In this document: piece after piece, positions 30,963-64,000 of the stretch
How the letters are laid out: each line of letters opens with the position of its first letter
How positions within the stretch are numbered: position 1 is the first letter of the stretch
Origin: a virus
DNA: 64,000 bases
IMG/VR virus record: IMGVR_UViG_3300042868_009121
Location: 52,145 to 116,144 of that record
Strand: one strand, 5' to 3'
Position numbers and translations under genes: made by a program
The notes under the pieces: generated by a model
What the model was told of the DNA's origin: nothing
The model's input: only the letters and a program-made list of their open reading frames with translations
Databases searched by the model: none

Positions 30963-30964
30963 AA

Positions 30965-31270
30965 CTATTTTAAAATATTTATTTGTTTATATTGATTAAT
31001 AACACTAGCTAAATCTGATGGAATTCTTAATTGAGTTCCGGGTTCTAAATATAAAGAATCTCCAGGCAAAGAATTTGCAGATGCTATTACCCACCAAAAA
31101 CTAGTATCTCCATAAAAATCAAAAGATAATAGATCTAGTCTATCTCCTAATACTGTTATTACATAACTATCATCATTAGATAGAGGTATATCTGGATAAA
31201 TATTATTTGAATAATATCTTTCTCCTGTATTATCTTTTGTTATTTCTATATTTTGATATCTGTAGTTCAT
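30965..31270 (-). CDS. LysM/tail-X-like baseplate wedge protein
   Basis: GDRLDLLS..FYGD..WWVIA.AN, G.QLRIP. Confidence 0.8.
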   Translation of the reverse strand: MNYRYQNIEITKDNTGERYYSNNIYPDIPLSNDDSYVITVLGDRLDLLSFDFYGDTSFWWVIASANSLPGDSLYLEPGTQLRIPSDLASVINQYKQINILK

Positions 31271-31271
31271 T

Positions 31272-33167: not shown

Positions 33168-33179
33168 TTTATTAATTTA

Positions 33180-42696: not shown

Positions 42697-43050
42697 TTAT
42701 GGTGTGATCATTAATGAACCTGTTGGTAGCCAAGGAGCTTGTTCTATTAACACAGGAGGATTGATTTGATTTTGTATTTGTTGAGCAACTGTTGCTTCAT
42801 AATTTTGCATACTAGCTGTACCCATTGAAGCAGTCATCCAATTATAAACTATATCATAAGTAAGATCATTAAAAGGAGTAAATGCAGAACCTGATTCGTA
42901 AGTAACTGGTTGAACTCCTATTACTGTAGATTGATATGATCCTGTAATTCCATGAAGTTGCCAATGTACGTTGAATACTACATTTGTTTCTCCAGATGCA
43001 GTTGGATATGCTTCTAGTGGATTAAAATTCCAATTGTAATTAATTGCCAT
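42697..43050 (-). CDS. Fibre-associated protein
   Basis: VV..VHW, FTPF.DLT...V..W, PW; follows an S74 fibre gene. Confidence 0.6.
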   Translation of the reverse strand: MAINYNWNFNPLEAYPTASGETNVVFNVHWQLHGITGSYQSTVIGVQPVTYESGSAFTPFNDLTYDIVYNWMTASMGTASMQNYEATVAQQIQNQINPPVLIEQAPWLPTGSLMITP

Positions 43051-46000
43051 TATTTTTTCTTTTTCTTATTTTCTAATAAATATTTGAGTTCTTCTATTTG
43101 TTTCTGTTGTTCTTTAACTGCTTCAATTAATAATCCTACCATATTACCATATGATACACTATAATTACCATTTTGATCTTTAGATACAACCTCAGGTATT
43201 ATTGGAAGTACTTCTTGGGCTATTACTCCTATCTTACGTGATTTATCATCAGTGTCTTTTCTATTATAGCTTACTCCTCTTAATGATATTACTTTTTCTA
43301 ATGCATTTTCAATTGGCTCTACATTATCTTTTACTCTAGCATCAGAATATGCAATAACATCTCCAGTTGCACGAATTGTACCTAATACATCTAATTTATA
43401 TGCAGGAGAAGACGCTCCTATACCTATACTTCCAAGTGAGTAATAAGCATTTGCACCATCTCTAACAAAAGTATGGGCTGCTGTATTACTTACTGTTGCT
43501 GTAACATTACTAAACGCGCTTGCTTCAAATCCTACACCCCAATTATTATTTCTCCATGTAGAACTTACTCCACTATATCCTAATCCTACTTCTTCTATAA
43601 ATACTTGAGGATAACTCCAAGTAGAACTTAATTCACCTATATAAACAACCATGTAAGTTCCATCATAACCGAATCTTACATTAAAGTTTCTATCTATAGC
43701 AGGATTTCCTTCTATATAAGCAAAGCAATTATACCAAGATGGAGTATCAGAGTAATTATATCCTCCAAAAGTAATTGTAAATGATTCATTAGTTACATAC
43801 TCATAAACTTTTAATTTTACAGTATGCATTGTATTTGTATACCCAACAGGATAAGTAATTTTTATAGCACCTGTTACTGTACTAGTTTGGGTAATATATG
43901 TACCATTTTTAGGTTTTATTAACCTATATCCTTGAGTATCAGCTATAGTATAATCTGTTACTATAGTACCATCTACTTGTAATTTTTCTGTAGGATTAGT
44001 TGTTCCTATACCTACATTTCCTCCATTAATTATTCTAAGTGCTTCTGGTGGATTAAGAGGTCCTCCTGAATTAAGTCCTGCGCCAAATGAAATACCACCA
44101 TTATTATTTCCATTAAATTGAATATACCCCATCCAAGTAGAATCAACTTTTTGTTGAATTCTAAAACCAGCTGTTTCCCAAGTAGATCCATTAGCTACTC
44201 TTGTATTTGTAAGTTCTAAATAATCAGCATTTGAAGTTGATACATTAATTCTTTCTAATAATTCTTGAGTTCCTGCACTAGTGCCTAATGATGCTCCTAC
44301 TATATCTAATTTATATGTTGGAGATGTTTTGTTTATACCTACATTTCCACTTTCTCCAATAGTTAATCTAGCATCAGACAAAGTAGCATTTCCACTAGAT
44401 CCTTGAGGTCCATTTAATATGTGTATTTTACCTTGAGCATCATTTGATGTTAAATCAGTTCTCTCAAATACTATAGCTGATTTTCTATATGAATTATTTG
44501 CTTCTCTATATCCAAAATGAATTCCAGTCCAACTACCTGAGGCTATTTGATTTACACCCACAGATACAAAATCATTTGAATCTGATATTACTTCAAAAGG
44601 TTTTTGTGGACTTGTAGTACCTATACCAAATCGACCCGTTGATAATATAGTAGCTCTAAAACTAGCATCACCAGCTCCTGTATAAAATTGAATATCTGCA
44701 GGAGTAAATCTTATATAAGATTGTCCATTACTAGAATCTAGTCTACCGTAATAAGGACTGTTATTAATATTTGCTCCAATACCACTACCATTATAAGTAA
44801 CTCCTGGTTCTGACGCCCACATACAAACACTCGCTGGACCTGTCCCACCAGTGCCGTCACCTCCTGTTGAATATAGTCTAAATAATGCTGTAGTATGACT
44901 TCCTTGTATATGTAATTTAGTTGCTGGTGTTGTGATGCCTATACCAATATTACCGCCTTGATGATTTAATGATATATTTCTATAAGTGCTATTATCACCA
45001 GCTTGTAAAGATGCATATTGAGATCCGCTTACAAAAGTTGTATAGAAATATCCACCATCTGCATTATTTGTTTGTATTTTAAGTCCAGTAACCCAATCAG
45101 CGCCATTGGTTCTAATTTGAGTAGTAACTCCTGTAGTTCCTGCTACATCTAATTTATATCCAGGAGACGTAGTATTTATACCGACATTTCCACCACCTGT
45201 TGCTAACCAAACATTACTTGCTACATAATGATTTATAGCCGCAGCATCTCCATTAGAATCTAATATTAAATAACCTCCAGCATCAGTATTTGCTTTTATA
45301 TTTGGATGACCTGAATATCTACCTACAACCATTGTTGTACCAGTAGTAGATGAGGCAACATCTAATTTAGCTGTTGGTGAATTAATTCCTATACCAACAT
45401 TTCCATCGGAAGTAATTCTTACTTTTTCACTATTATTAGTAAATAATAATAATGGATGCGCACTTGCTGCTCCAAATTGTATTTGTGAACCATCACTAGA
45501 ATTCCAAAAAGAATTTACTCCTTGTGAAGTTTCTTTATTATATATTATAGATGGGCCAGAATTTGCAATTACTAATTTTCCTTCTGTTGGTGTTGTAGTT
45601 CCTATACCAACATTACCGTCACCTAAAATAGTTAATCTAACAGTAGAATTATATGCATTATTATATAAACTTCCAAAATACATGTTTACTTTAGAACCAT
45701 CAAATCTTGTATCTATTTGACCAGTTACATCTGCGCTATCATGCCAAGTTATAGTTCCTCTTTGAGTAGGAGATCCAGTATATAATACTCCTAAACGTAA
45801 CATTTCAGATGTACTACTATTTTGAAATCCTATTTGAAGATTTGCTCCAGGTGATGTAGTACCTATACCTACATTTCCTCCATTAAAATACGAATTTCCT
45901 TCTGAATTTAGGTTTACTCCAACTGTGCTATCATTAGCAGCATACATATAGAGTCTACTTCCAAAACTGCCTCCTGTACTTCCTCTTATTTCAAGTACTG

Positions 46001-47222
46001 GAATTGAATCTGTTTTGGTTTTAAATCTTATGTAATTACTGTTAAAATAAATGTAAGGATCATTACTATTTAAATATAAATTTCCATTAGATGTAATTTT
46101 TTCTGTAGGATTCGTAATTCCTATACCTAAGTTACCAGATCCATTAAATCTAGCTATTTCTGCTCCATTAGAAGAAAATAATAAGTTGTTAGAACCATTA
46201 AATCTAATAACTCCATCAGAATTTGTTGCTGTAGAAGAAAGAGTATCTCCAAATCCTAAAAGTAATGGGGCAATAGTTCCATTAAAAAAAGTAGAATATA
46301 AACCATTAACAGTTCCTCCTGTTATTCTCATTGACTCTGCATCTGAACTGCTTATTTGTAATTTAACTGAGGGAGATGTTGTACCTATACCAACATTACC
46401 TCCTGTAGTAAGACGAATATGTTCACTACCACCAGCTCTAAAAGTTAATGGAACACTATTTTGAGGAGATAAAGTCATTCCATTAATATCAGCATACATG
46501 TATCCATATAATGTAGATCCAGCATACATATAAAGTTCAGAACCATTTGTTCCAGATATAGATAACGAACGATAATTTGTTGATGATACTGGTGATGTGG
46601 TACCTATACCAACATTACCACTTGATGCTGTTACAAATATTGCAGTTGGATATAATGTAGTTCCTATTCTTAAATTATAAATTCCTTGAGAATATACAGC
46701 GGCATAATTGTTTGCCCCTCCAGCACTATCCCAACTTAATTGTCCAATACTATATCCACTAGTTCCCCAATTTAAAGTACCAGCTGAACTAAATTGATAT
46801 CCAGTAGCTATATTAGTATTACCTGAGCTGTCTAGAGTTACTCTAGCGGTTCCATTACTTTCTAATACTAAACTTTGTGCATCATTTGTACCTATAGTTG
46901 CAGTTGCTCCAAAAGAATTTCCTCCTTGAACGAATGCATTTGTGCCTGTAGTACTAATAAATGAAGATGTTAAAGCAAAAGAAGCACTTGTAGCAAAACT
47001 AGAACTAATTGCAAAAGACGAAGTAACAGCTCTAGAAGAACTAACTGCAAAACTAGAAGTACCAAATAAAGAACCACTAAGTGATCCCGTAAATGAGCCT
47101 GTAAATGAAGCTCCTATATATCTAGAACCAGAAAATACACTTGAAGTTACTGCATTAGTAACAAATAAAGCACGAAGACTGGCATCTGAGCCAGAAGTTA
47201 TAATTTTTTTCCAAGATGGCAT
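43050..47222 (-). CDS. Long tail fibre/spike with C-terminal peptidase S74 chaperone
   Basis: Many GNVGIGTT.P repeats; YSDARVK...GVIAQE...YGNMVGLLIEAVKE. Confidence 0.9.
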   Translation of the reverse strand: MPSWKKIITSGSDASLRALFVTNAVTSSVFSGSRYIGASFTGSFTGSLSGSLFGTSSFAVSSSRAVTSSFAISSSFATSASFALTSSFISTTGTNAFVQGGNSFGATATIGTNDAQSLVLESNGTARVTLDSSGNTNIATGYQFSSAGTLNWGTSGYSIGQLSWDSAGGANNYAAVYSQGIYNLRIGTTLYPTAIFVTASSGNVGIGTTSPVSSTNYRSLSISGTNGSELYMYAGSTLYGYMYADINGMTLSPQNSVPLTFRAGGSEHIRLTTGGNVGIGTTSPSVKLQISSSDAESMRITGGTVNGLYSTFFNGTIAPLLLGFGDTLSSTATNSDGVIRFNGSNNLLFSSNGAEIARFNGSGNLGIGITNPTEKITSNGNLYLNSNDPYIYFNSNYIRFKTKTDSIPVLEIRGSTGGSFGSRLYMYAANDSTVGVNLNSEGNSYFNGGNVGIGTTSPGANLQIGFQNSSTSEMLRLGVLYTGSPTQRGTITWHDSADVTGQIDTRFDGSKVNMYFGSLYNNAYNSTVRLTILGDGNVGIGTTTPTEGKLVIANSGPSIIYNKETSQGVNSFWNSSDGSQIQFGAASAHPLLLFTNNSEKVRITSDGNVGIGINSPTAKLDVASSTTGTTMVVGRYSGHPNIKANTDAGGYLILDSNGDAAAINHYVASNVWLATGGGNVGINTTSPGYKLDVAGTTGVTTQIRTNGADWVTGLKIQTNNADGGYFYTTFVSGSQYASLQAGDNSTYRNISLNHQGGNIGIGITTPATKLHIQGSHTTALFRLYSTGGDGTGGTGPASVCMWASEPGVTYNGSGIGANINNSPYYGRLDSSNGQSYIRFTPADIQFYTGAGDASFRATILSTGRFGIGTTSPQKPFEVISDSNDFVSVGVNQIASGSWTGIHFGYREANNSYRKSAIVFERTDLTSNDAQGKIHILNGPQGSSGNATLSDARLTIGESGNVGINKTSPTYKLDIVGASLGTSAGTQELLERINVSTSNADYLELTNTRVANGSTWETAGFRIQQKVDSTWMGYIQFNGNNNGGISFGAGLNSGGPLNPPEALRIINGGNVGIGTTNPTEKLQVDGTIVTDYTIADTQGYRLIKPKNGTYITQTSTVTGAIKITYPVGYTNTMHTVKLKVYEYVTNESFTITFGGYNYSDTPSWYNCFAYIEGNPAIDRNFNVRFGYDGTYMVVYIGELSSTWSYPQVFIEEVGLGYSGVSSTWRNNNWGVGFEASAFSNVTATVSNTAAHTFVRDGANAYYSLGSIGIGASSPAYKLDVLGTIRATGDVIAYSDARVKDNVEPIENALEKVISLRGVSYNRKDTDDKSRKIGVIAQEVLPIIPEVVSKDQNGNYSVSYGNMVGLLIEAVKEQQKQIEELKYLLENKKKKK

Positions 47223-49648: not shown

Positions 49649-52600
49649 TTACTTAATTAGTTGTTTAACTTGATCTTCTAATACCTCTATTCTTTTTTGT
49701 TGCTCCTTTATTACGTTTATAAATATAGTTGCTAGTTTTCCATATTGTATACCTATAGGATTACCAACATCGTCTTTAGATACAAATTCAGGAAATAAAT
49801 CTTCTAGTTCTTCTGCTATTAAACCTATATCTTCTTTTTTAGTGTCTTTCCAATTAAATGAAACAGGATTTAGGTTTTTAAACTTCTCTAAATCTGTTGA
49901 GTATGATTGTATATTTTCTTTTAATGTTCTTGTTGAAGTTTCAATTAGTGTAGTAACCCTAGCAGTTCCATTAACATCTAAAGGATATGCTGGTGTTGAT
50001 GTTCCTATACCTACGTAACCACTATCTAATATTATTACTCTTTCTGTTCCTCCTACAGTTGTAGCAGATGTAAAGAATCTTATATGCGCATTGCCATCAC
50101 TACCTGTTGCTAAAAAGTTAAGTCCACCATTACCATTAGAAACTATAAAACTTCCTGTAGGTCTATATGCTCCTTGTAAAACAACTCCTTGACCAGCAAA
50201 TCCAACATTTATAAATCTATTATTAGCTACACTACTACCAGCTTGAAATGATGAAAAAGCATCTGCATTAGAAGAGTTTGCATTTTCTACTCTAAGACCG
50301 AGTGTAGCGTTTGCACTTCCTGAAATGTGTATTGTTGAAGTTGGATTTGTTAATCCAATACCTAAATTACCAGAAGACTGATAAACTGCACTACTTGATA
50401 AAACAGTTTGTCCATTCCATATAGGTATATAATTAGTTGTTCCTCCTAATACATTTGAGCTAGTTAATGCAAAACTAGCAGTACCAAATAAAGACCCGGT
50501 AATACCATCACGAACTCTTAATGATCCTGTTATTGTTGAGCTTCCTGAAATTAATACAGATCCTGTTACACTTAATAAATTTGATATATAACTTCTTAAT
50601 CCATAATAATTTGCAACTTTTGCACTAGGATTTCCTATATCATAAAGAGAATCTCCGACTGGAAATATATGACCGGATCCTGATACATTATATGTGCCAC
50701 TAATTAACCATCTGTTTGTACCACTTGTACCAAAATATATTTCTCCCCCAGGACCAGATGCATCAAGTAACATACCTCTACTTCCTCCCCCATCACCTGA
50801 TGTTCTTAATACTGTTGAATACGGACTACCTCCAGCTAAAATTGATAATTTTTGATATCCAGCATCTCCTGGATTTCCTACATTAAATATATCTATTTTG
50901 CCTGATGCAAGTGGATCAGGATTTTTTAAATTTTCAACATGTATAGTTGTTAATTTTGATGTGCCAGATGCATTAAGTAAATAACTTGTACTAGAACTAG
51001 AACCTGAAATTAAGAGACTTCCTGTTATAACAGCTGATCCTGAAAATGGAAATGCTGATCCTGCGTTTAATGCGTAAGAAGCTGTTGTAGCAAAACTAGC
51101 AGTTCCTAGTAAAGATCCAGTAATACTTCCACTAACTCTTAACGAGCCTGTGAATTCGAATACATCTGACCTGATGTAAAAATCATCTGCTGAGGAAGCA
51201 GTTGCGGCATACGATGCGCTTATTATACTATTGGAACCAAAAGGTCCCCATACATTAGAGGCGGTAACAAAAGATGCGGTGTCTGATTGTGCTGCTGCTG
51301 GCGCCCAAGATGCACTAACTGCCCAGCTAGAAGTACCAAATAATGACCCGGTAATACTTCCATTAACTCGTAGTGAACCGGTAAATTCAAATACATCTGC
51401 TCGTATATAAAAGTCATCAGCAGAAGATGCAGTTAATGCTTGAGATGCTGTTAAAGCATAAGATGCTGTAAGTGGTATTAAAGCAGAAGATGCAGTATAA
51501 TGTAATTGACCAGTTGAAGTGTTTACTAAAACTACATTAGTTTCAGGAGATTCAATAAGACTAGGAAAGAAAATAGATCCTGTAGCTGTTAAACTTCCAG
51601 ATATTCCAGTATTACCTATAATATGTAATTTATAAGAACCTGTTTGAGTAGTTCCTATTGAAAAATTTCCTGCGAAATAGTTACTAATAGCTACTTCAGA
51701 TTGATATATACCCCATCTACCACTTGGAATTACTATACTTCCCATATTCACATAAGCCGCGTTACCGCTACCGCCTATTGCAGCCATTGCAATACCACCT
51801 CTATTAGTTCCTGTGTAGTTAGCTATTCTTATAGCTCTATAAGTACCTATAGTTCCAGTAAGATTACCTCTTTCTAAATAAATTAAATCAGCTTCATCTG
51901 TTGTTGTTCCTGTACCAAAAAATGCCGCTAAATTAAAACATCTTAAATTTTGAAGACTTCCGCCTCCTAATAAATTATTAAATACGCTTAATTGAAATGC
52001 TCTTGCTACAAGTTGATTAGTTGCAGATGATGCGCTAATATTATAAGAAACTTGCATCCCAATATCTGCTGTATCTGTAGCATTTGATTGGGTTTGTAAA
52101 TGAGATACAATAAATGTTGATCCTGTTGATTTAGTAGAATTTACAGTAAGGCTATAAAAGCTAGAAGTAATAGTTCTATTTCCTGTTAAGGTACCATCAG
52201 AATTATAAATGTTTGGAGCATAACTAGCAGTTCCTAATAATGATCCTGTAATACTTCCATCAACTCTTAATGATCCTGTAAATTCAAATACATCAGACCT
52301 GATATAAAAATCGTCAGCAGATGATGCTGTTGCAGCGTACGATGCACTTATAATACTATTTGAGCCAAACGGTCCCCAAACATTTGATGCTGTTACAAAT
52401 GAAGCAGTATCTGATTGTGTTGCAGATGGCGCCCAAGATGCACTAACTGCCCAACTAGAAGTACCGTATAGTGAACCAGTAATTCCACCATCAACTATTA
52501 CCGACCCTGTGAATTCAAATACATCTGCTAAAACAGTTAGATTATCTACTGTTAAACTTCCAGTTATGAAAACTGACCCTGTAAATTGATGTGTATTAGA

Positions 52601-53962
52601 TTGTTGAGAACCAAATATAGTTGATCCTGTTATATATTCTGTACTAGAAGTAATTACTTGAGCTACAATTGTTTGTGCAGTTAAAGTACCCCTAACTAAA
52701 AAATCGTCTGCTGATGATGCTGTTAAAGCGTTATATGCCCAAGATGCAGTACCTACTACATTTAATGCATGAGATGCTGTAACTGCATAACTTGCAGTTC
52801 CTAGTAAAGATCCAGTAATACTTCCACTAACTCTTAACGAGCCTGTGAATTCAAATACATCTGATCTAATATAAAAATCATCAGCAGATGAAGCTGTTGC
52901 AGCATATGATGCGCTTATTATACTATTAGAACCGAATGGACCCCAAACATTTGATGCAGTTACAAATGAGGCTGTATCAGATTGAGCTGCTGCTGGCGCC
53001 CAAGATGCACTAACTGCCCAACTAGAAGTACCGTATAGTGAACCAGTAATACTTCCGCTAACTCTTAGCGAACCAGTAAATTCGAATACATCTGCTCGTA
53101 TATAAAAGTCATCAGCAGAGGATGCAGTTAATGCATTATAAGCCCAACTTGCTGTTCCTACTACATTTAAAGCATGTGATGCAGTAATTGCATAAGACGC
53201 TGTTCCTAATAAAGATCCAGTAATTCCTCCATCAACTTCAAGAGACCCTGTAAATTCAAATCTATCTGCTCTAATATAGAAATTATCAGCAGATGATGCT
53301 GTTAAAGCAAGAGATGCTGTTTTTATACTGTCAAACCCATAAGGACCATAAACATTAGAAGAAGAAACATAAGATGCGGTTGCCGCTTGTTCAGCATTAG
53401 GTGCCCAAGATGCACTTACAGCCCAACTTGAAGTACCATATAAAGATCCTGTAATACTGCCACTTACTCTTATTGAACCAGTAAATTCAAATATGTCTGC
53501 GTTTACTATTAATTGATCTGTAGTTAAAGATCCACTTATATTAATTGAACCAGTAAACTCAAATACATCGGCATTTACCGTTAAATTGTCTGTTACTAAT
53601 GTACCTCCTACCTGAAAAGTAGAACTTCCAGTATCGTAAAATAAATCTGCTGAAGCAGATGCACGATTAACACTGCCATCAGAAATTAGTAATCTACCTT
53701 GTACAGGATTAGCTATTGTATTAAAACCGGTTCCTGAAGTACCTGAGGATCCATTTGCACCAGAAGTACCATTTGTTCCATTTACGCCAGAAGTACCATT
53801 AGTTCCACCAGTGCCACCTCCGCCGCCGCTTCCGTAATAAAAATTACCTTCTCCGTCTACAACAACTACTCTAGTAGCTAAATTATTTTCATTTAGATTA
53901 ACTTTTAGAGTATTGAACCTGGCGTTACCGTCTTGTTTAGGCGCTTCTATACGAAATCCCAT
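49649..53962 (-). CDS. Repeat-rich long fibre with C-terminal S74-like chaperone
   Basis: Repeated D.FEFTGS...TGSL.GT.S modules; C-terminal STRTLKENI...GLIAEE. Confidence 0.85.
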   Translation of the reverse strand: MGFRIEAPKQDGNARFNTLKVNLNENNLATRVVVVDGEGNFYYGSGGGGGTGGTNGTSGVNGTNGTSGANGSSGTSGTGFNTIANPVQGRLLISDGSVNRASASADLFYDTGSSTFQVGGTLVTDNLTVNADVFEFTGSINISGSLTTDQLIVNADIFEFTGSIRVSGSITGSLYGTSSWAVSASWAPNAEQAATASYVSSSNVYGPYGFDSIKTASLALTASSADNFYIRADRFEFTGSLEVDGGITGSLLGTASYAITASHALNVVGTASWAYNALTASSADDFYIRADVFEFTGSLRVSGSITGSLYGTSSWAVSASWAPAAAQSDTASFVTASNVWGPFGSNSIISASYAATASSADDFYIRSDVFEFTGSLRVSGSITGSLLGTASYAVTASHALNVVGTASWAYNALTASSADDFLVRGTLTAQTIVAQVITSSTEYITGSTIFGSQQSNTHQFTGSVFITGSLTVDNLTVLADVFEFTGSVIVDGGITGSLYGTSSWAVSASWAPSATQSDTASFVTASNVWGPFGSNSIISASYAATASSADDFYIRSDVFEFTGSLRVDGSITGSLLGTASYAPNIYNSDGTLTGNRTITSSFYSLTVNSTKSTGSTFIVSHLQTQSNATDTADIGMQVSYNISASSATNQLVARAFQLSVFNNLLGGGSLQNLRCFNLAAFFGTGTTTDEADLIYLERGNLTGTIGTYRAIRIANYTGTNRGGIAMAAIGGSGNAAYVNMGSIVIPSGRWGIYQSEVAISNYFAGNFSIGTTQTGSYKLHIIGNTGISGSLTATGSIFFPSLIESPETNVVLVNTSTGQLHYTASSALIPLTASYALTASQALTASSADDFYIRADVFEFTGSLRVNGSITGSLFGTSSWAVSASWAPAAAQSDTASFVTASNVWGPFGSNSIISASYAATASSADDFYIRSDVFEFTGSLRVSGSITGSLLGTASFATTASYALNAGSAFPFSGSAVITGSLLISGSSSSTSYLLNASGTSKLTTIHVENLKNPDPLASGKIDIFNVGNPGDAGYQKLSILAGGSPYSTVLRTSGDGGGSRGMLLDASGPGGEIYFGTSGTNRWLISGTYNVSGSGHIFPVGDSLYDIGNPSAKVANYYGLRSYISNLLSVTGSVLISGSSTITGSLRVRDGITGSLFGTASFALTSSNVLGGTTNYIPIWNGQTVLSSSAVYQSSGNLGIGLTNPTSTIHISGSANATLGLRVENANSSNADAFSSFQAGSSVANNRFINVGFAGQGVVLQGAYRPTGSFIVSNGNGGLNFLATGSDGNAHIRFFTSATTVGGTERVIILDSGYVGIGTSTPAYPLDVNGTARVTTLIETSTRTLKENIQSYSTDLEKFKNLNPVSFNWKDTKKEDIGLIAEELEDLFPEFVSKDDVGNPIGIQYGKLATIFINVIKEQQKRIEVLEDQVKQLIK
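51099..53050. repeat. Intragenic direct repeats
   Basis: 59-bp identity 51099-51157 = 52794-52852; 57-bp identity 52427-52483 = 52994-53050. Confidence 0.85.
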
Positions 53963-54006
53963 CTCGGACTATCTTTCTAATACATATTTGGGATTTATAA
54001 ATTATA

Positions 54007-56088
54007 CTAAGAAATATGGTTTTGAATAGCTTTTATAACTTCTTCTCCTGATATTGTTTTACTGCATTCAAACTGTCTTTGTGTTCCTTTATGTTTTGGG
54101 CACCAATTCCAATCACCTGGGTCTAGTTGATGTGTATTAAAACATCCTCTACAGAATCCATTTTTTGTATATACTCTAATTGCATCTTCAAATTCAGTTA
54201 TTGGATCTGAAAATCCTGATACTACGCATGTTTTTGTTCCTAATGCCCAACTAAGCCAACTTAATCCACTACTAATACCAATAAACATTTCAGATCTTTG
54301 TAACATTTCTATAGTTGTTTCTATAGTTGTATTAGTAAGATACTCTACTCCTTTAGGATTGGCATTACCCATATATCCGTCTTCTTCTTTTGATAACATC
54401 ACAACTCTATATCCTTTAGATTTTAAGTAGTCAACTACTTTTTGCCATCCTGTTTTATTATTCCAGTATTTAGCTTGGGCTGTACTATGAACTGCTATTG
54501 ATATGATCTTTTCTTTCTTTATACTTTTATCAACTGTTATTCTAGGTCTTAGTTCTTTATACTCTAAACCTAAAATATCTGATGCTGTTTGTTGTAATGG
54601 AATATGCTTGAAGTCTTTAGGATTTTTATTATAGTCAATAGTTCCATCTTCATTATAAAACCATCCTATAGTATACATTGCATAGAGATTATTAACAGTT
54701 TCTCCAGGCTTAGCAAACTCAAAGTTGGGATATTCTTTTTCAAAAAAATGATTCCAAAATGTTGATGCTATTATTTTACAATTATATTTCTTTTGAAACT
54801 CTTCTATGTAAGGAAACCATGCTAGGGTATCGCCTAAAGATTTTGAGTCTAGTGCAATATAAACTCTTTTATCTCTTAAGTCTAAATTGTATTCATACTC
54901 ATGAATTCCATCAAAAGCTTTTATTTTCCAATCAATAAAACTTTGTTTACTAGCTTTAATCCAACAATTAGAAGATATTTTTCCTGAGTGTAAAACTTCA
55001 TTTGTTTTATTATCTATAAAAGATATGTCATAATCTAATTGCTTGCCTCCTACGATTTCAAATAATGCTCCTTGAATAAAATTAATATTAAATTGAGGAA
55101 CCGGTTCTTTTGATGGTATAGCTAGTATGTTTGCACTTTCGTAACCTTGTATAAGTTGATCTTTCATAGTGTTAGAATATTTTTTTACTAACTCTTTTGT
55201 TCTATTCATCCACGATAATTCTAAAGCTGTTGTTTTAGCTAGTTTAGAATATCTAAGATATTTTATTGGGCTTATTAATTTAGATATGGCTTCTACTATT
55301 TGATCTGTGTTTCTTTCTATTTTGATCAAGCCTTTTAATTCATTATTGTCTTCATATGTTCCTACTACAGGAAGCCCAGATGCCATAGCTTCAAGCAAAG
55401 TTAGATTAGGATGACCTGCCTCTAATATAGATGCGTGAACAAATATGCTATGCTCTTTATATAAGTCTCTTAATTCATCTTCAGTTAAATCATAAAGAAT
55501 AGTAAGTTTGTTATAATCAGAAGGAAACTTTTCAAAATAGTTTTTGTTGTTACTAGGTCCAGCTATAGTAATAGGAATATCTAATTGTTTAGCAGCTTCA
55601 ATAGCATAACTAAATCCCTTTCTATCTTCAGACTGATCATGAATAAATCCATTATTTGCTACACATAATAACTTATGTTCTTTAACTCCTGTAGGAGTAA
55701 AATAATCTGTGTTTACTCCATGAGAAAAGTATTCAGGTATTCCTTCAAAGTAGTCTACTAAGAATTTAGCGGGGACAAATGCTTTTTTAGCATTCTTTAT
55801 AGCCTTTAGATTTTCTTTATAACTACTAGAATCTTTACCATAAAGATAAGCATGGTGATCATGCATAGTGAAGTAATAAGGGATACCTCTTTGGTGCGCC
55901 AGGTTCGCTAGGTTTGCCACATGAATATGTACTATATCATAATCATTTACATCGTCCAGATACGCGATTGTGGAGTCATGGCCTAGTTTTAGAAGGCAGT
56001 TGTGTGTCTCCCATATAATCTTTTCAACGGCTCCCCAACCATTAGGTGGAATAGGTATTAAACCTGGAGTAACATTAACTATTTTCAT
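54007..56088 (-). CDS. GT4 glycosyltransferase fused to Aah/TibC-like protein O-heptosyltransferase domain
   Basis: GWGAVEK, LLEAMASGLPVV; SLGDTLAWFPY, IGISSGLSWLSWA, CRGC..WCP.H...FEC. Confidence 0.85.
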   Translation of the reverse strand: MKIVNVTPGLIPIPPNGWGAVEKIIWETHNCLLKLGHDSTIAYLDDVNDYDIVHIHVANLANLAHQRGIPYYFTMHDHHAYLYGKDSSSYKENLKAIKNAKKAFVPAKFLVDYFEGIPEYFSHGVNTDYFTPTGVKEHKLLCVANNGFIHDQSEDRKGFSYAIEAAKQLDIPITIAGPSNNKNYFEKFPSDYNKLTILYDLTEDELRDLYKEHSIFVHASILEAGHPNLTLLEAMASGLPVVGTYEDNNELKGLIKIERNTDQIVEAISKLISPIKYLRYSKLAKTTALELSWMNRTKELVKKYSNTMKDQLIQGYESANILAIPSKEPVPQFNINFIQGALFEIVGGKQLDYDISFIDNKTNEVLHSGKISSNCWIKASKQSFIDWKIKAFDGIHEYEYNLDLRDKRVYIALDSKSLGDTLAWFPYIEEFQKKYNCKIIASTFWNHFFEKEYPNFEFAKPGETVNNLYAMYTIGWFYNEDGTIDYNKNPKDFKHIPLQQTASDILGLEYKELRPRITVDKSIKKEKIISIAVHSTAQAKYWNNKTGWQKVVDYLKSKGYRVVMLSKEEDGYMGNANPKGVEYLTNTTIETTIEMLQRSEMFIGISSGLSWLSWALGTKTCVVSGFSDPITEFEDAIRVYTKNGFCRGCFNTHQLDPGDWNWCPKHKGTQRQFECSKTISGEEVIKAIQNHIS

Positions 56089-59000
56089 TTGAATGTTATA
56101 ATAGTTTTTAGTGCCTCTATATTATTTTTATTTACTACGTAGAACTTAGATTTATGATCATTCATGATTATTTCTATTTCTATATCTTCATCACTTAAAT
56201 CAAATAAATTATAAGAATGTCCATTAGTTCCAGAAATAAAATGATCAATTATTTCATCAGTTTTATTTTTTCTTTTAATAATAATTTTAGATTTGTTACT
56301 ATTAGTAGAACTACAATTCCAAGTAATTATAGCAAATTTAGTATTATCTATAGGACAGTATTGCTCTTCCATTCCTTCTTTTGAATATGCTACTTTATAA
56401 ACAGACGATACAAATCCATCTACTATAAAATCAGATTCTGCTGCTGAAGTTATTGTATTCCATGAGGAGTCTGGAAAGTCTATTTTTACTTGTTTTGGTG
56501 TATTAACTATTAGATTTTTATAGCCTTCATCATTTCTTAATAATCTTAATAGATAATCTTCTACAAGAATAAATTCATTTTCTTTACTTCCTAATTTTAA
56601 TTTAGAATTTACATAATCTTCTTCTTTATTAATATTAGGCATAATTTTAGTAAAATAGTCTAAGCTTAAATACCACAATTGATAAGATAGATATTTGTCT
56701 TCATTTACATAAATGTAACCATTTTTATCTTTAGTTTCATACATTATATGTTTTATCTTGTCTACATTTTTTATTTCAGAATCATATTCAATTCTAAAGA
56801 AATGAGTAAATCCTAATGACTTTGCAAGATTAGTTGAATGATGTAAATTTGATAGTACAGATAGTCCATGTTTTTGATTTACATTATTAGAAAAAGAAAA
56901 ATACTTATCTTTGTCTGTATACCAAATAAATACGGTATCATCACTTATATATTCATTTTTAAATAGTCTATTGTTTTTATCATACAATATATAATCAACA
57001 TCTTTTATTACTGACTCGCTAAAATTACTATTAGTAACTAGCATTATAGGAATCTTAGTATTTTTTAAATTAGCTATTGTTTTTTTAAATGTAGTGAAAC
57101 ATTCTTTATCATGAAAAAAAGCATCAATTATTATAATAGGTTTTATTTTATTTTTTAAATCTATTATGTCTTTATAAGCATTTTTAATTACTTTAGATTG
57201 TTTTGATCCTACATTCATTTTCCAATCCCAATGTTTCTCTCCATATGCTCCTCCTGGTGTTATTCTGTAAACTCCTCCTGTCCATCTATCATTTCTTCCT
57301 TTTCCTGATTCTAATAATAAACAATGTAAAGCCCAATATCCATCAAAAACATCTTCATGGAAAAACCATTCTGGGAATGAATAATTTTGCTCTTTAAAAA
57401 TATTTCTAAACATAAAACCAAAAGACATATAATTAGCTTCCATATTATCTAAAAGCTCTACTTCTGGTTGGATCCCATAACAAGCATATTTAGTATACTC
57501 TTCTTTTGGATTTTCAGTTTCTTTTTGAAAATGTCCTGTACTATGTACAGAGTATTCTGTATTAGATTGTAAAAAATCTATTTGTTTTTGTAATTTATAG
57601 TCATCTACATAAAAATCGTCTCCATCTAATATAGTAATATATTCAGATTTTACTTTTTTAAGTAAATTAGATACCATTAAAGGAGTAGACCCTTGATTAA
57701 TTTTATTTTTATTTAGAATTACATTTTTATGATCTTTATACTTTTGAAGTATTTTCCAAGTATTATCTGTAGAACAATCATCTGATATTAGAATATTAAA
57801 ATTAAAGAGTGTTTTTTGTCTTAATACACTATTTACAGATTGCTCTATATATTTTTCATGGTTATAAGTAGGGATAACTACAGTAAGTAATTTTTCTTCT
57901 GTAGGCTTTTTAGCATAAATTGTCCCTAATACTTCAGTTTGATAAAAACCTTTTATACTATGGTTGTTTTTAGAATTTTGATCTCTTATTTGATCTATAT
58001 CAAAACCTTTAGATACTAATTTGTCTACTAATTTTCCTACTTTTTGATTATCATTGTCATGATATTCAATTAAAAACCCATCTATAATATTAAAAACTTC
58101 ATCTTCTAGTTCATCAATAATTTCATATTCAGCTCCTTCTATATCTATTTTAACTAAGGATATCTTATCAATATTATTTTGTTTAATAAATGTCTTAAGA
58201 GATATTGCTGGTACGATTACTTCTTCTAAAGAGTTTGCATGCATCTCTAAATGTTCTTTAGAAAGGCTTCCTATCGTAGTATTTGTAGGATCTATATAGA
58301 ATTTAAGGTCTTCGTCTTTAGTATAAACAGCTTTAGGAACTATTTCTACATTTAGATTATTTGTAACACTTTTTAAATTGATTAAAGACTCTTTATTAGG
58401 TTCAAATGCATAAACTTTTTTAACTCCTTTATTTGTGCATAAAAGAGAAAACAATCCACTATTAGCTCCAATATCTAAAACCAAATCTAGATTATCTAAT
58501 TCATAACAATCGTATTTATTTTCTAAAAACATCTCATTATAATTGTTAAATAAACAATCAAATGGATTATCTAAATTAAGATATATTTTATCTTGATCAG
58601 AATCTTTAATAAAAAGATCTTTTGAGAATACTAAATTATTATTTGAATCATAAAACTCTACTAAGATTGTTCCTATAGCATAGTCTTTACTAAAATCAGA
58701 TGCAGAAGTAGGAATTGGAATTACCCACCAATTAGAACCATTTTCAAAATTTGCATTAAACCAATATAAAGGAGCATTTGAGTACTTTTCTTTTATTGAT
58801 ACTTTATATACTACAGGCTCGTGTTTTTTATATGTAATATGAATTTTATTCTCTGATGGGGTTACTGATATATCAAAAACTTCATCAACTTTATTTATTT
58901 CCATTCCTAGTTTATTTAATATAGATTTTATATTTTGTTCTTTACTACTAAAATCTAGATAGTTTATATTGCTAAATTTATCAAAATAATCTAAATAAAC

Positions 59001-59861
59001 GTCTAAATTAAAAATAAGTGACGGTGTTTTCCAACTAATAGCCTCTCTAATTACTAGAGGCATTGTTTCTTTATCAGTAGCATGACCTCTAGATGTAAAT
59101 AGGAATAAGTCAGCCATTTCAAAAAAAGTATCCACATCACTTCTTTCTCCCCACCACTTACAATTTGAAGGAAAGTCTTTCATTAGAGGCTGCCAATATT
59201 GTTGAAAGTTGTCAGCTTGGTTACCAATAAAGTGAAATTGAATAGGATAGTCTTTAAGCATTCTAGCATACTCAATAACCTCTGCTTGATTCTTTCTAGG
59301 AGTGAATAATCCTACATTTATAACGTGTTTCTTATTAGGATCTAAACCTAACTTATTTAGTAATTCCTCTCTAGTATTTGTTCTTTTTTTATACTCTATA
59401 GGATATTCTACTAATTCAATAGGGATATTTAATGGCTTATAAGTCTCTACTTGATATTGACTTACCATCATGAATTTATCTGGGAAGTATAGTTTTCTAT
59501 TTATATCAAAACTTGAATCATGAGATGTTTCAACTATTTTATACTTTCTATTTATTGAATAGAATTTATCAGCCACATCAAAAGGCATAAACATTTCAGG
59601 TATTTCCTGAAGGTGGATTACGTCTGGATTATACTCTTCGATTAGCTTAAATAAATGGTGCTTATATTGATCTAAAGTGATAAGTCTACTACCTAAAAGG
59701 TTTTTAATCCTATTTCTTTGAACTACAAGATTACCTCCTGTAACATCATCCCACTCTAAACAATATACTGTATGTTCTTTATATAAAGCCTCTATTTGTT
59801 TGTAAAGATATTGAGGCATTCCACCTGTAGAAAGGTGTGGAGCAATAAAAAATATTATCAT
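56085..59861 (-). CDS. Multidomain GT4 + FkbM methyltransferase + GT2 protein
   Basis: PHLSTGGMP, RKNQ, PLVIREA; LDIGAN, KIDIEGAE; IPTYN, DDCSTD, LDGDD. Confidence 0.85.
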   Translation of the reverse strand: MIIFFIAPHLSTGGMPQYLYKQIEALYKEHTVYCLEWDDVTGGNLVVQRNRIKNLLGSRLITLDQYKHHLFKLIEEYNPDVIHLQEIPEMFMPFDVADKFYSINRKYKIVETSHDSSFDINRKLYFPDKFMMVSQYQVETYKPLNIPIELVEYPIEYKKRTNTREELLNKLGLDPNKKHVINVGLFTPRKNQAEVIEYARMLKDYPIQFHFIGNQADNFQQYWQPLMKDFPSNCKWWGERSDVDTFFEMADLFLFTSRGHATDKETMPLVIREAISWKTPSLIFNLDVYLDYFDKFSNINYLDFSSKEQNIKSILNKLGMEINKVDEVFDISVTPSENKIHITYKKHEPVVYKVSIKEKYSNAPLYWFNANFENGSNWWVIPIPTSASDFSKDYAIGTILVEFYDSNNNLVFSKDLFIKDSDQDKIYLNLDNPFDCLFNNYNEMFLENKYDCYELDNLDLVLDIGANSGLFSLLCTNKGVKKVYAFEPNKESLINLKSVTNNLNVEIVPKAVYTKDEDLKFYIDPTNTTIGSLSKEHLEMHANSLEEVIVPAISLKTFIKQNNIDKISLVKIDIEGAEYEIIDELEDEVFNIIDGFLIEYHDNDNQKVGKLVDKLVSKGFDIDQIRDQNSKNNHSIKGFYQTEVLGTIYAKKPTEEKLLTVVIPTYNHEKYIEQSVNSVLRQKTLFNFNILISDDCSTDNTWKILQKYKDHKNVILNKNKINQGSTPLMVSNLLKKVKSEYITILDGDDFYVDDYKLQKQIDFLQSNTEYSVHSTGHFQKETENPKEEYTKYACYGIQPEVELLDNMEANYMSFGFMFRNIFKEQNYSFPEWFFHEDVFDGYWALHCLLLESGKGRNDRWTGGVYRITPGGAYGEKHWDWKMNVGSKQSKVIKNAYKDIIDLKNKIKPIIIIDAFFHDKECFTTFKKTIANLKNTKIPIMLVTNSNFSESVIKDVDYILYDKNNRLFKNEYISDDTVFIWYTDKDKYFSFSNNVNQKHGLSVLSNLHHSTNLAKSLGFTHFFRIEYDSEIKNVDKIKHIMYETKDKNGYIYVNEDKYLSYQLWYLSLDYFTKIMPNINKEEDYVNSKLKLGSKENEFILVEDYLLRLLRNDEGYKNLIVNTPKQVKIDFPDSSWNTITSAAESDFIVDGFVSSVYKVAYSKEGMEEQYCPIDNTKFAIITWNCSSTNSNKSKIIIKRKNKTDEIIDHFISGTNGHSYNLFDLSDEDIEIEIIMNDHKSKFYVVNKNNIEALKTIITFK

Positions 59862-59915
59862 AACTTATTATTCTGTTATTATAAATATATAAATTTTTAT
59901 AGCAGATTAAAATTA

Positions 59916-60689
59916 TTATATTCCGTACCTACCCTTTAAAGCATTGTAGTTTTGGCTTATTTCCGCAGCTGTTAATGATCCAGAGTACCACATCATATGC
60001 GCCACAGACATTGAAATAGGGCTACTACCCCCTCCTGAAGATCCTAAGTAATAAATCCTAGTAGGACTAATAAAACTATCATCAACAAAAGTATCTGTAG
60101 TGGTTCCTCCTAATAGAGTACCGTTAAGATAAAAATCTATCCCAGCATTACTACTAACAAAGGTAAACATTGCTGTTTGACTTTGGCTTACAAATTGAAC
60201 TGCGCCTGCTGGGTTATATACAGTAGCATTAAAGTTAGGAGTTCCTTGTGATATTATAACCTCACCTGGGCCTAATCCTGTTCCTGGTTGAGATAGTCCA
60301 TAGCTGGTAGGGTTAGCATTATCTGCAAAAAACCTATATCTAGTAAATGTTGTGGGAAGTGCAGCAAAACTACCTATAATATTTAATGTATGAGATTTAG
60401 GCACTGATCCTGTTAAATACCCTGATCCCGTCATAAAATCATCAGCTCCATCAAATACAAATCTACTAGCCTCTCCATTTGAAACAAATATTGGAGAGTT
60501 TACCAAAGCTAAATTATTTGAACCATTTAAATTAGTCCACACTGTTCCGGATCCTCCGTAAGAAGACGCATTTCCTGCATCAAATCTATGTGTTAAATTT
60601 GTAGTAACAATAGTCGAAGTTACTTGCTGCCCTACAGAAAAATTTCCTGAAGACACTCTACTTGATCCATTAAATATAGTAACTGGCAT
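59916..60689 (-). CDS. LamG/concanavalin-like virion protein
   Basis: DAGN..SY.GSGT.W, FDG.DD, YLNG, LTA.EI.QNYNA. Confidence 0.8.
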   Translation of the reverse strand: MPVTIFNGSSRVSSGNFSVGQQVTSTIVTTNLTHRFDAGNASSYGGSGTVWTNLNGSNNLALVNSPIFVSNGEASRFVFDGADDFMTGSGYLTGSVPKSHTLNIIGSFAALPTTFTRYRFFADNANPTSYGLSQPGTGLGPGEVIISQGTPNFNATVYNPAGAVQFVSQSQTAMFTFVSSNAGIDFYLNGTLLGGTTTDTFVDDSFISPTRIYYLGSSGGGSSPISMSVAHMMWYSGSLTAAEISQNYNALKGRYGI

Positions 60690-60706
60690 TTAATAAATTT
60701 ATGTTA

Positions 60707-60982
60707 TTAGTATCCATTAGTATCTAACCATTCTTGGAGTGGCTGTCTATCTCCATTATATAACTCTCTTCTAAGATCGTGTTCTATATGTTGTTCAGGA
60801 GTTGGAACTTCTCCGTTTGTTAATAGTTCACTATGTCTTTGTCCTTTAATAAATTGAATTATGTTTTCAAAACATCTAACATAATAAAGAAAATTCATAT
60901 ACTCAAAAGTAACAATTTTAATAGATTCTTCTCCTGTTAATTCTGTACTAATGTAAATAAAATCGTTTGTAGTGTAACTCAT
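60707..60982 (-). CDS. Hypothetical protein
   Basis: 91-aa ORF in operon. Confidence 0.6.
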   Translation of the reverse strand: MSYTTNDFIYISTELTGEESIKIVTFEYMNFLYYVRCFENIIQFIKGQRHSELLTNGEVPTPEQHIEHDLRRELYNGDRQPLQEWLDTNGY

Positions 60983-60994
60983 ATTATTATATTT

Positions 60995-62280: not shown

Positions 62281-64000
62281 TTATGCTCTTGTATAAGTTA
62301 TTCTAATTGCTAATAATTCTGCTGTCGCAGCTAATGTATCACCACCTGCCGCACCATCTCTATAGCATCTAAATTGCACAAAATTACTAGCTGCTGGGGT
62401 ACCCCCTAGTGTTATTGCCGCTGTTGCTGCAGATATATTCACGTCTCTCGTAGCCTGGTTAGCATCGGTAACTGTTTGAGCAGTACCAAAAGCTTGGTCT
62501 ATCAAATCAGAATCAGCGTATGCTCTTCCTTGGAATCCCCAAACAACAGAGTTTGTTGATGCGTTATTTGACATCCAATAGAATACTGCAGTTATTGTAC
62601 CACCATTATAATCTGATGGCATAGGCATTGCCCAGTTTGCAAAGGTTTGTGAACCGTCTGCAAAGTTTATAGAGTAAAAGTTTACTGCATTTGTTGCTGT
62701 TGCTGTTAGTGTTGGAGATTGTGCACCAGCTGTAATTGAAGGCCAACCGCCACCAGCTGTTAATATAATTTGACCTGTTACACTTGCACCATTAGCTCCT
62801 GAAGTACCTGCGGATCCAGAACTACCACTAGTTCCACTAGAACCAGAAGAACCACTAGTACCATTTGCTCCAGATGTTCCGCTAGAACCAGAAGTACCGC
62901 TGCCACCTCCGCCAGCTGCAGATCCTGTTGTAGTTAATATATTTCCACTAGAATCAAATCCTAAAAATCCTACCGGAGTTCCTGTAAAAGAAGTTGTAGT
63001 AGTATAAGAATTTAATTTTAATTGCCCTGTTGTTTGAACAGACGAAGTAGTTACAGTTAATACGTTTACACTACCAGATGAAAATGTAGCTATAGTAGGA
63101 AAATTAGACCCACTATCTACAATTGAAAATAAATTTCCTCCGCTACCTGATACATGTAATAAAGTAGATCCACTACCTTGTATTTTAACAGTTGGTCTTA
63201 ATATTGTTTGTGTAATACTTGTATTACCTAAAGTGACACTATTAGATCCATTACCTTTTGCTTGATCACCAATTACAATTTCATTTTGACCATTACTTGA
63301 TGAAGGGGATGTGGCGTATCCAATGAATATACTATTATCAGAAGTTGTATTATAAGTAACACCATCAGGAAGAGTATCGCCAGCGAATGCTCCAATTCCT
63401 ACATTATAGGTTCCGGTAGTATTACCTCCTAAAGCACCATATCCAAATGCACTATTACTACTTCCACCTATATTATCAAATAATGAACCATATCCAAATG
63501 CAGAATTACTTGCTCCTGTTGTAGTGTACCTCATACTAACAGCACCTACGGCTGTATTACCTCCAGCACCAGTAGAAGCAGATGGTAGGGCATCTGAACC
63601 TATTGCTGTATTAAAAATCTGAGTTGTATTAGATTTTAAAGCATTAGCACCGATTGCAGTATTTTGAGATTGATTACCACCACCTCTACCTACAGTTATA
63701 CTATTAACTCTGATATCATTGCTACTTGTTACATTTCCTGTTACTACTAAAGCAGTTCCATTAAATGTTAAATTACTTTCTACAGTTGCATTTGGAGCAG
63801 TTCCATTAAGAGTTATTACTCCATTGTCTGTTGTGCCTGTTAGAGTAAGAGTGCCAGATGTACCAGAAGATCCTGAAGTTCCACTAGAACCAGAAGTTCC
63901 AGATGATCCTGGTGCGCCTGCGGCGCCACTAGTTCCAGAAGAACCACTAGAACCAGAAGTTCCAGATGATCCTGGTGCGCCTGCGGCGCCACTAGTTCCA
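62281..64000 (-). CDS. Fibre/adhesin protein (5' truncated by window edge)
   Basis: Frame stays open from 63534 to the window end; N.A.G..AL beta-roll repeats and GTSGSSG collagen-like tracts. Confidence 0.8.
   Translation of the reverse strand, partial: GTSGAAGAPGSSGTSGSSGSSGTSGAAGAPGSSGTSGSSGTSGSSGTSGTLTLTGTTDNGVITLNGTAPNATVESNLTFNGTALVVTGNVTSSNDIRVNSITVGRGGGNQSQNTAIGANALKSNTTQIFNTAIGSDALPSASTGAGGNTAVGAVSMRYTTTGASNSAFGYGSLFDNIGGSSNSAFGYGALGGNTTGTYNVGIGAFAGDTLPDGVTYNTTSDNSIFIGYATSPSSSNGQNEIVIGDQAKGNGSNSVTLGNTSITQTILRPTVKIQGSGSTLLHVSGSGGNLFSIVDSGSNFPTIATFSSGSVNVLTVTTSSVQTTGQLKLNSYTTTTSFTGTPVGFLGFDSSGNILTTTGSAAGGGGSGTSGSSGTSGANGTSGSSGSSGTSGSSGSAGTSGANGASVTGQIILTAGGGWPSITAGAQSPTLTATATNAVNFYSINFADGSQTFANWAMPMPSDYNGGTITAVFYWMSNNASTNSVVWGFQGRAYADSDLIDQAFGTAQTVTDANQATRDVNISAATAAITLGGTPAASNFVQFRCYRDGAAGGDTLAATAELLAIRITYTRA
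63881..64000. repeat. Tandem repeat, period 63 bp
   Basis: 57-bp identity 63881-63937 = 63944-64000, encoding G-X-X tracts. Confidence 0.85.

Follow-up and report, generated by a model that had tools for sequence, protein, structure and literature searches.

The best-described relatives of the system reported here are the TibC-TibA and Aah-AIDA-I pairs of Escherichia coli, in which a soluble cytoplasmic enzyme of the BAHT family (bacterial autotransporter heptosyltransferases; PDB 4RAP and 4RB4 for TibC) is encoded beside a long, repetitive and Ser-rich surface protein (PMC4358343). In TibC, Asp-110 is the catalytic base, Thr-226 and Lys-230 bind the beta-phosphate, Trp-305 contacts O4 of the heptose, and Cys-339, Cys-342, Cys-358 and Cys-370 form a 1Fe-0S iron finger; Arg-286 hydrogen-bonds N1 of the adenine and is the basis of specificity for adenosine diphosphate (ADP) sugars, such that the R286A mutation abolishes or strongly reduces activity, and a beta-hairpin thumb (Phe-265 and Val-266, with Phe-368) joins dimers into a dodecamer ring (PMC4358343). 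Here, we analyse two adjacent genes, P0001 and P0002, in a stretch of 64,000 nucleotides (the window) of the IMG/VR virus record IMGVR_UViG_3300042868_009121. P0001 belongs to the same curated family as TibC and Aah, shares their catalytic residues and four-Cys finger, and also lies beside a long repetitive Ser-rich surface protein, its putative target for hyper-glycosylation. From sequence comparison, we think it probable that a freshwater myophage of virulent type uses the two genes as an accessory cassette to glycosylate its fibres; the acceptors would be proline-poor Gly-[Ser/Thr]-[Ser/Thr] tracts.

The cassette departs from the TibC and Aah systems in several respects. It is encoded by a phage, its TibC-like domain is fused to a GT4 domain, Arg-286 is replaced by Thr and the thumb is five residues shorter. 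Fibre genes are found in place of a nearby autotransporter, and the putative partner is a Gly-[ST]-[ST] tract instead of a beta-helix. Complete relatives lack the ADP-heptose pathway. As a methyltransferase and four further transferase domains accompany the TibC-like domain, we would expect an oligosaccharide to be made, in contrast to the single heptose added by TibC and Aah.

In BclA, a Thr-rich Gly-X-Y region is densely O-glycosylated with glycans that end in an O-methylated sugar, and forms a hair-like nap at the surface. This protein of the Bacillus anthracis exosporium is described as having collagen-like Gly-X-Thr repeats that carry a rhamnose-anthrose oligosaccharide with a 2-O-methyl sugar (PMC6222408). 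What it has in common with the system proposed here is a Gly-X-Y region bearing a short oligosaccharide with an O-methyl end; BclA differs in being bacterial, in its location on spores, in its Pro-containing GPT repeats and in its transferases. We know of no TibC-type primer in the BclA system.

Two viral precedents are also relevant. In mycobacteriophages, glycosyltransferases encoded in the structural block attach O-linked glycans to virion proteins of the same phage while these are in the host cytoplasm; the work, as cited, concerns other enzyme families, with none of the TibC type, and acceptors that are C-terminal tails of capsid and tail-tube subunits rather than fibre tracts (Freeman 2023, cited in PMC12619734). 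That glycosylation was shown by experiment, whereas the system described here is known from sequence comparison. The chlorovirus PBCV-1 (A064R, A111/114R) likewise has viral cytoplasmic multidomain proteins, with glycosyltransferase and methyltransferase domains, that assemble and methylate the glycans of a virion protein, but PBCV-1 infects eukaryotes, its glycans are N-linked to the major capsid protein and its domains are unrelated in sequence (PMC7826918, PMC9614988).

Where aquatic phages encode glycosyltransferases among their fibre genes, the usual explanation is a modification of the host surface or of DNA (PMC7029224, PMC10202952). In our literature search, no paper connected TibC-type enzymes with phages or with Gly-Ser/Thr tracts. 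Virion O-glycosylation in mycobacteriophages, the enterobacterial BAHT enzymes and the glycosylated collagen-like nap of BclA are already known. New here are the four-domain P0002 with its previously unnamed GT-A-fold domain, the split of the family at Arg-286, the persistence of Ser-rich repeats where the enzyme is missing, and the joint gain and loss of cassette and tracts.

Two fused enzymes encoded among fibre genes

The interval 54007-59861 of the window holds exactly two open reading frames (ORFs), P0001 and P0002, on the same minus strand as the fibre genes on either side, and the start of P0001 overlaps the stop of P0002 by 4 nt (Table 1). Together they encode five transferase domains and one methyltransferase domain. 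A preliminary description of this DNA, made from the letters alone, had proposed a GT4+FkbM+GT2 fusion and a fusion of GT4 with an Aah/TibC-like domain carrying a Cys motif, both embedded among Ser/Thr-rich fibre genes. Both fusions and their setting are borne out, and every domain listed is present, but the inventory had missed a GT-A-fold domain at the end of P0002 (residues ~905-1258).

The profile check against the Aah/TibC family that was suggested at the time gave a clear answer: P0001 matches TIGR04414 with 297.3 bits, where the curated threshold is 200 (E = 1.5e-88; model positions 14-372 of 374), and such scores greatly exceed what chance would give. It matches the crystallised TibC chains 4RAP/4RB4 in phmmer with E ~1e-59, and by alignment its TibC-like domain has the same N-terminal barrel and GT-B-like core as TibC. 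The Cys motif, C646-x2-C649 ... C663 ... C675, coincides with the Fe-binding Cys of TibC. By sequence, P0001 is a genuine member of the Aah/TibC family, in a distinct branch that differs at a key donor-site residue. Matches to Glyco_trans_1_4 (47.7 bits) and Glycos_transf_1 (40.2 bits), both above cut-off, lie within residues 1-310; this GT4 domain is a candidate chain-extending transferase.

The domains already recognised in P0002 all score above their cut-offs: Glycos_transf_1 at residues 164-304 (52.7 bits), the FkbM domain with Methyltransf_21 (PF05050; 64 bits for a cut-off of 22.7) and TIGR01444 (95.9 for 37.7), and the GT2 domain with Glycos_transf_2 (PF00535; 92 bits) as well as PDB sequence matches to chondroitin synthase and TarS-type GT2 enzymes. 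The fourth domain has no Pfam family match, and an ESM Atlas search with the P0002 C-terminus returned only unnamed viral clusters below 0.9. An exhaustive HMMER search found 182 homologues, many of them stand-alone proteins of 330-360 aa; numerous phages have the domain as a gene of its own, as does the related contig L013. An AlphaFold (AF2) model built with a 34-homologue alignment has a mean predicted local distance difference test (pLDDT) score of 92.9; its first ~235 residues adopt a GT-A nucleotide-sugar transferase fold, followed by a beta-sandwich. Foldseek matched the domain with probability 1.0 to 3cgx, xylosyltransferase 1 (XylT1), BoGT6a, the collagen galactosyltransferase COLGALT1 and TarP, with target-normalised template modelling (TM) scores of up to 0.58. 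Among the 34 homologues, D1027 of the DxD-like acidic motif E1025-x-D1027 is invariant and E1025 nearly so. We thus predict a GT-A nucleotide-sugar transferase, at the level of the fold only.

The neighbours of the cassette are fibre genes, as indicated by PHROG tail-fibre families and C-terminal Peptidase_S74 chaperone domains; the flanking fibre ORFs contain 22-29% Ser+Thr, compared with 9-19% in most other ORFs of the window, and smaller Ser/Thr/Gly-rich ORFs are also present in the fibre block. Runs of Gly-X-Y triplets are found in the two fibre-type proteins P0123 and P0124. The tract of P0123 lies ~175 nt past the end of the TibC-like gene, and P0124, which runs off the window, has a 986-aa counterpart in the 91%-related contig L003. 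No triplet tract was found in the 1390-aa fibre at 43050-47222.

Joint presence and absence of cassette and tracts

Environmental phages often carry the GT4-TibC fusion: IMG/VR has at least 102 relatives, of which 79 fetched loci were used for the counts of TibC loci. A tract is found at most 10 kb away in 24 of the 79 TibC loci, with runs of up to 861 triplets. With the window's own 51-residue tract (63847-63999) as protein query, tracts are found somewhere on the contig in 19 of the 20 TibC-positive contigs of at least 80 kb. A pattern in International Union of Pure and Applied Chemistry (IUPAC) code found tracts in four of five contigs, and the reversed control pattern had no match. When contigs were chosen by tract alone, 17 of 49, mostly small fragments, exceeded the TIGR04414 cut-off, as did 9 of the 11 that are at least 40% complete. 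The comparison rate among isolate phages is 4 records with a TibC-like domain in 50,697.

As a control within the lineage, we compared 20 contigs with tail sheaths 60-94% identical to that of the window. The two TibC-positive relatives both have tracts and a P0002-like gene. Among the 18 TibC-negative ones, none has a P0002-like gene and 17 lack tracts; the exception, a fragment of 20 kb, bears its tract at the extreme end. A complete TibC-negative relative of 174 kb lacks TibC, the P0002-like gene and the tracts. Set against 0/7 for the TibC-negative relatives that reach 45 kb, the 19/20 corresponds to a Fisher p of ~9e-6, for records that are not phylogenetically independent. Judging from these comparisons, close relatives gain the cassette and the tracts together, and lose them together.

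This pattern bears on the usual explanation of such genes, in which the cassette would modify the host surface (the lipopolysaccharide O-chain, capsule, S-layer or a host adhesin), e.g., to block superinfection. We consider it unlikely, because the cassette tracks the phage's own Gly-S/T tract genes and not the phage lineage, and because the TibC family is made of protein O-glycosyltransferases. The explanation draws on the pelagimyophages, where glycosyltransferases of the tail-fibre hypervariable region have been read as modifiers of the host O-chain (PMC7029224), and on the resemblance of GT2+GT4+methyltransferase sets to O-antigen clusters (partial NCBIfam matches to TuaG, EpsE and WcaA). 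Yet flippase, polymerase, transporter and lipid-carrier transferase were not found among the genes examined, and serotype conversion would be of little obvious use to a virulent-type myophage of 170-185 kb.

The same relatives inform on whether the glycans might instead be placed on other parts of the virion, either the Ser-rich beta-structured fibre repeats or the termini of capsid or tail-tube proteins. The Ser-rich repeats are many in P0123 and closer than the tracts to the strand-loop-strand motifs of beta-helices that BAHT enzymes recognise (PMC4358343), the mycobacteriophage glycans are reported on capsid and tail-tube C-termini (Freeman 2023, as cited in PMC12619734), and one contig, L069, has a TibC-like gene and no tract. 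However, the 'TASSADDFYIR...GSITGSL' repeats of P0123 are kept in at least three TibC-negative relatives, including the complete 174-kb genome, so that Ser-rich fibres per se do not call for the enzyme; triplet tracts do. The presence of TibC is predicted by that of a tract, not by that of a fibre, and bacterial homologues adjoin small tract proteins (see below). We regard this alternative as improbable too. The earlier proposal that the phage glycosylates its own fibres is therefore retained in part: virion fibres are the best-supported target, but the acceptor appears to be the Gly-[ST]-[ST] tracts rather than generic Ser/Thr-rich sequence.

P0123 contains about nine copies of a repeat of ~60-100 aa (TASSADDFYIR[AS]DVFEFTGSLRV.GSITGSL[YL]GT[AS]S[WY]A...), a type also seen in giant fibres of 1775 and 1886 aa in the complete TibC-negative relative. 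In other contigs, ORFs adjoining TibC-FkbM fusions (L064/L065:12149-21412, 3087 aa; L070:13958-21328, 2456 aa) have ~49% Ser+Thr and uninterrupted runs of 861 and 727 Gly-X-Y triplets, respectively, with no proline. These runs are among the longest such tracts that we observed.

Homologues in other phages and in bacteria

A large protein collection contains 4661 TibC-like proteins at E <= 0.001, with architectures that include stand-alone and doubled domains and fusions to GT4, FkbM or other methyltransferases. Across phages, the TibC-like domain is repeatedly accompanied by GT4 and FkbM, in a single fused protein or encoded by genes of their own. In the isolated Microcystis phage Mel-JY01, the TibC-like domain ends a 1226-aa fusion that adjoins a structural gene; a 'cytidylyltransferase-like' gene of this phage has no Pfam match.

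Bacterial cases are rare: a scan of genome contigs found only three bacterial TibC-like loci, and among 400 Gammaproteobacteria sampled around Methylobacter one carried TIGR04414, with no further carriers. Flanking sequence could be used in two bacteria. In Methylobacter luteus, the TibC-like gene, 52% identical to the domain of the window and with Ile in place of Arg-286, directly follows the gene of a 287-aa secreted protein (gene pair at L246:6920-9122). The latter has two runs of G-T-[SA] triplets, each followed by a conserved Cys-containing module, and the pair has an ordinary chromosomal setting with mfd upstream. This pair may be a bacterial equivalent of what the phages carry. A Paceibacteria assembly has only one tract match, ~1 kb from its TibC-like gene.

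Donor-site residues divide the TibC family

The residue roles published for TibC (PMC4358343) were mapped by hand on P0001 using the phmmer alignment and a 21-sequence alignment, A1, of three enterobacterial enzymes, one Methylobacter enzyme, and phage and metagenome members. The genes of the enterobacterial enzymes directly precede those of AIDA-I-type autotransporters. The catalytic Asp, the Thr/Lys pair, the Trp and the four Cys are shared by enterobacterial, phage and Methylobacter members (Table 1), even though the subfamily has diverged to 30-50% identity. Position 286 behaves differently: Thr, Val or Ile occupies it in the clade of the window, in Mel-JY01 and in Methylobacter, while Arg is found only in the three enterobacterial enzymes and in the phage subgroup of L033/L053. 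In A1, residue 286 splits the family into two branches. The thumb also differs, its hairpin being five residues shorter in the subgroup of the window than in the enterobacterial enzymes; its tip in P0001 is Tyr-Met, and Phe-368 of TibC is kept as F673.

These changes could indicate that the TibC-like domain is catalytically altered or inactive and serves mainly as a fibre-binding or assembly scaffold (a chaperone-like ring), with the other domains doing the chemistry or making a free glycan. The loss of activity in the R286A mutant and the shortened thumb fit this idea. We find it very unlikely, however, as the catalytic Asp, Thr/Lys and Trp are invariant at such low identities, which indicates selection for catalysis.

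The preliminary description cited O-heptosylation by Aah and TibC as established; for this branch, heptosylation is not supported: T592 stands at the position of Arg-286, and homologues of gmhA and of the kinase domain of rfaE are both missing from two complete TibC-positive phage genomes. A gmhA-like gene (phosphoheptose isomerase; 88560-89015, 179 bits, just below the cut-off) was found in G064, an incomplete 219-kb TibC-positive contig and the source of locus L070, and in none of the four other TibC-positive records searched alongside it, two of which are complete. Pfam identified no sugar-nucleotide synthesis gene among the window ORFs tested. Given the replacement of Arg-286 and the lack of an ADP-heptose pathway in complete relatives, the first sugar may not be derived from ADP-heptose.

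Table 1. Features of the cassette and its surroundings (window coordinates), and P0001 residues equivalent to functional residues of TibC.
Feature	Coordinates	Strand	Details
P0001, GT4 + TibC/Aah-like two-domain glycosyltransferase	54007..56088	-	693 aa; Pfam, TIGR04414, phmmer
P0001 GT4-type (GT-B) domain, residues ~1-310	55159..56088	-	Pfam; phrog_33732 glycosyltransferase, residues 1-314
P0001 TibC/Aah-like (BAHT family) domain, residues 335-689	54022..55086	-	TIGR04414; alignments to 4RAP/4RB4 and A1
P0002, GT4 + FkbM methyltransferase + GT2 + predicted GT-A-fold domain	56085..59861	-	1258 aa
P0002 GT4-type domain, residues ~1-310	58932..59861	-	Glycos_transf_1
P0002 FkbM-family methyltransferase domain, residues 461-620	58002..58481	-	PF05050, TIGR01444
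P0002 GT2 (GT-A) glycosyltransferase domain, residues 657-830	57372..57893	-	PF00535; PDB sequence matches
P0002 fourth domain, predicted GT-A fold then beta-sandwich, residues 905-1258	56088..57149	-	Homologues, AF2, Foldseek
P0123 tail fibre, directly downstream of cassette	49649..53962	-	1437 aa; Ser-rich repeat body + C-terminal Peptidase_S74
Gly-X-Y tract, 12 triplets (GTS/GTN/GSS type, no Pro), P0123 residues 44-79	53726..53833	-	Candidate acceptor
P0124 fibre-like protein, two Gly-Ser/Thr triplet tracts	62281..64000	-	At least 572 aa, runs off window
Gly-[ST]-[ST] tract, 14 triplets, no Pro, P0124 residues 365-406	62782..62907	-	Candidate acceptor
Gly-[ST]-[ST] tract, at least 17 triplets, P0124 residues 1-51, continues past window	63847..63999	-	Candidate acceptor
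Second long tail fibre, Peptidase_S74 C-terminus	43050..47222	-	1390 aa; context only
TibC Asp-110 = P0001 D420, in SLGDTLAWFPY			Invariant in A1
TibC Thr-226 / Lys-230 = P0001 T536 / K540			Invariant in A1
TibC Trp-305 = P0001 W611			Invariant in A1
TibC Cys-339/342/358/370 = P0001 C646/C649/C663/C675, predicted iron finger			Invariant in A1
TibC Arg-286 = P0001 T592			T/V/I in 16/21 of A1

Proposed function and its implications

In the reading that we favour, both enzymes would be soluble and, late in infection, would modify freshly synthesised fibre proteins in the cytoplasm of the host. Ser/Thr of the tracts in P0124 and in the N-terminus of P0123 would receive the first sugar from the TibC-like domain of P0001; the GT4 domain of P0001 and the GT4, GT2 and GT-A-fold domains of P0002 would extend it to a short oligosaccharide, which the FkbM domain would cap by O-methylation. 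The outcome would be fibres bearing a dense coat of methylated glycans. This reading draws on four observations: the joint presence and absence of cassette and tracts, the position among fibre genes, the domain identities with their retained catalytic residues, and the adjacency of tract and enzyme genes in two bacterial genomes. We infer from them what the acceptor is, in which order the steps run, that a methyl group caps the glycan, and the purpose, which may be stiffening, shielding from proteases or defences, or adhesion.

Several points weigh against fibre glycosylation on the tracts. Its support is wholly comparative, the counts cover records that share ancestry and are mostly fragments, and the Fisher p, computed by hand, is descriptive. 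There is one clear exception: L069 (G004, a 175-kb contig that is 85% complete) has a TibC-FkbM fusion and no tract by either query. The tracts of the window are short, 12-17 triplets, compared with hundreds elsewhere. The known substrates of BAHT enzymes are beta-helical autotransporters, not Gly-X-Y tracts (PMC4358343). Arg-286, essential in TibC, is absent from P0001, so the sequence does not guarantee activity, and combinations of GT2, GT4 and FkbM are also typical of polysaccharide synthesis.

Hypermodification of phage DNA bases with sugars, as a protection from restriction, is hardly credible even though phage glycosyltransferases often glycosylate DNA and the window has a nucleotide-metabolism module including a thymidylate synthase, because the TibC family acts on protein, the cassette lies in the late fibre block and not in the replication block, no hydroxymethylase or base-modification gene was seen adjoining it, and the co-occurrence with tracts would be left unexplained. 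The co-occurrence data and the kept catalytic residues weigh against all four alternatives considered here.

The branch with a short thumb and no Arg-286 includes many freshwater phages, Mel-JY01 and a few bacteria such as M. luteus. We tentatively suggest that it could be a distinct class of protein O-glycosyltransferases, priming proline-free collagen-like Gly-Ser/Thr tracts with a sugar other than heptose derived from ADP-heptose, by which phages would build mucin-like, methyl-capped glycan brushes on their fibres; this would be a kind of virion glycosylation that is widespread and as yet undescribed. If fibres are the targets, abundant lake phages would display glycans of their own making on the structures that bind receptors, with a bearing on host range, particle stability and attachment to organic matter. 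The TibC family would then extend from a few pathogen adhesins to a new type of acceptor, and possibly a new donor, and glyco-engineering would gain a small set of soluble enzymes of interest for densely O-glycosylating a simple repeat. Mel-JY01, an isolated phage with the same kind of fusion, makes the idea directly testable.

Genomic context

The window is a fragment of an uncultured freshwater myophage with ~32% G+C, whose tail sheath is 45% identical to that of Flavobacterium phage immuto. Positions 52000-62000 had no megablast match among isolate phages, placing the window in an uncultured lineage; DNA nearly identical to the window is present in lake and freshwater metagenomes of many studies. 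A scan of the stretch for promoters and terminators was uninformative, with fewer promoter-like sites than in shuffled sequences. Elsewhere, the window encodes GroEL, DnaB, ribonucleotide reductase, DNA polymerase, thymidylate synthase, a FEN-type exonuclease, and RecA/UvsX-like and gp32-like proteins.

Some genes of the window, all on the minus strand, deserve mention. Downstream of the tail sheath and tube region, ORFs of 1501, 631 and 919 aa (26457-35939) have no PHROG family match at E <= 1e-5; probably they encode proteins of the baseplate or the tape measure, in a lineage of which little is described. The phage-encoded GroEL-type chaperonin is at 11450-13081 (phrog_5725, E = 2e-148), and an HNH + NUMOD3 homing-endonuclease-like gene (8423-9103) lies within the block of replication and nucleotide-metabolism genes. 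The thymidylate synthase (1282-2358, 358 aa) fully covers the 266-position Pfam model and is ~90 residues longer than it, which suggests that it carries an insertion.

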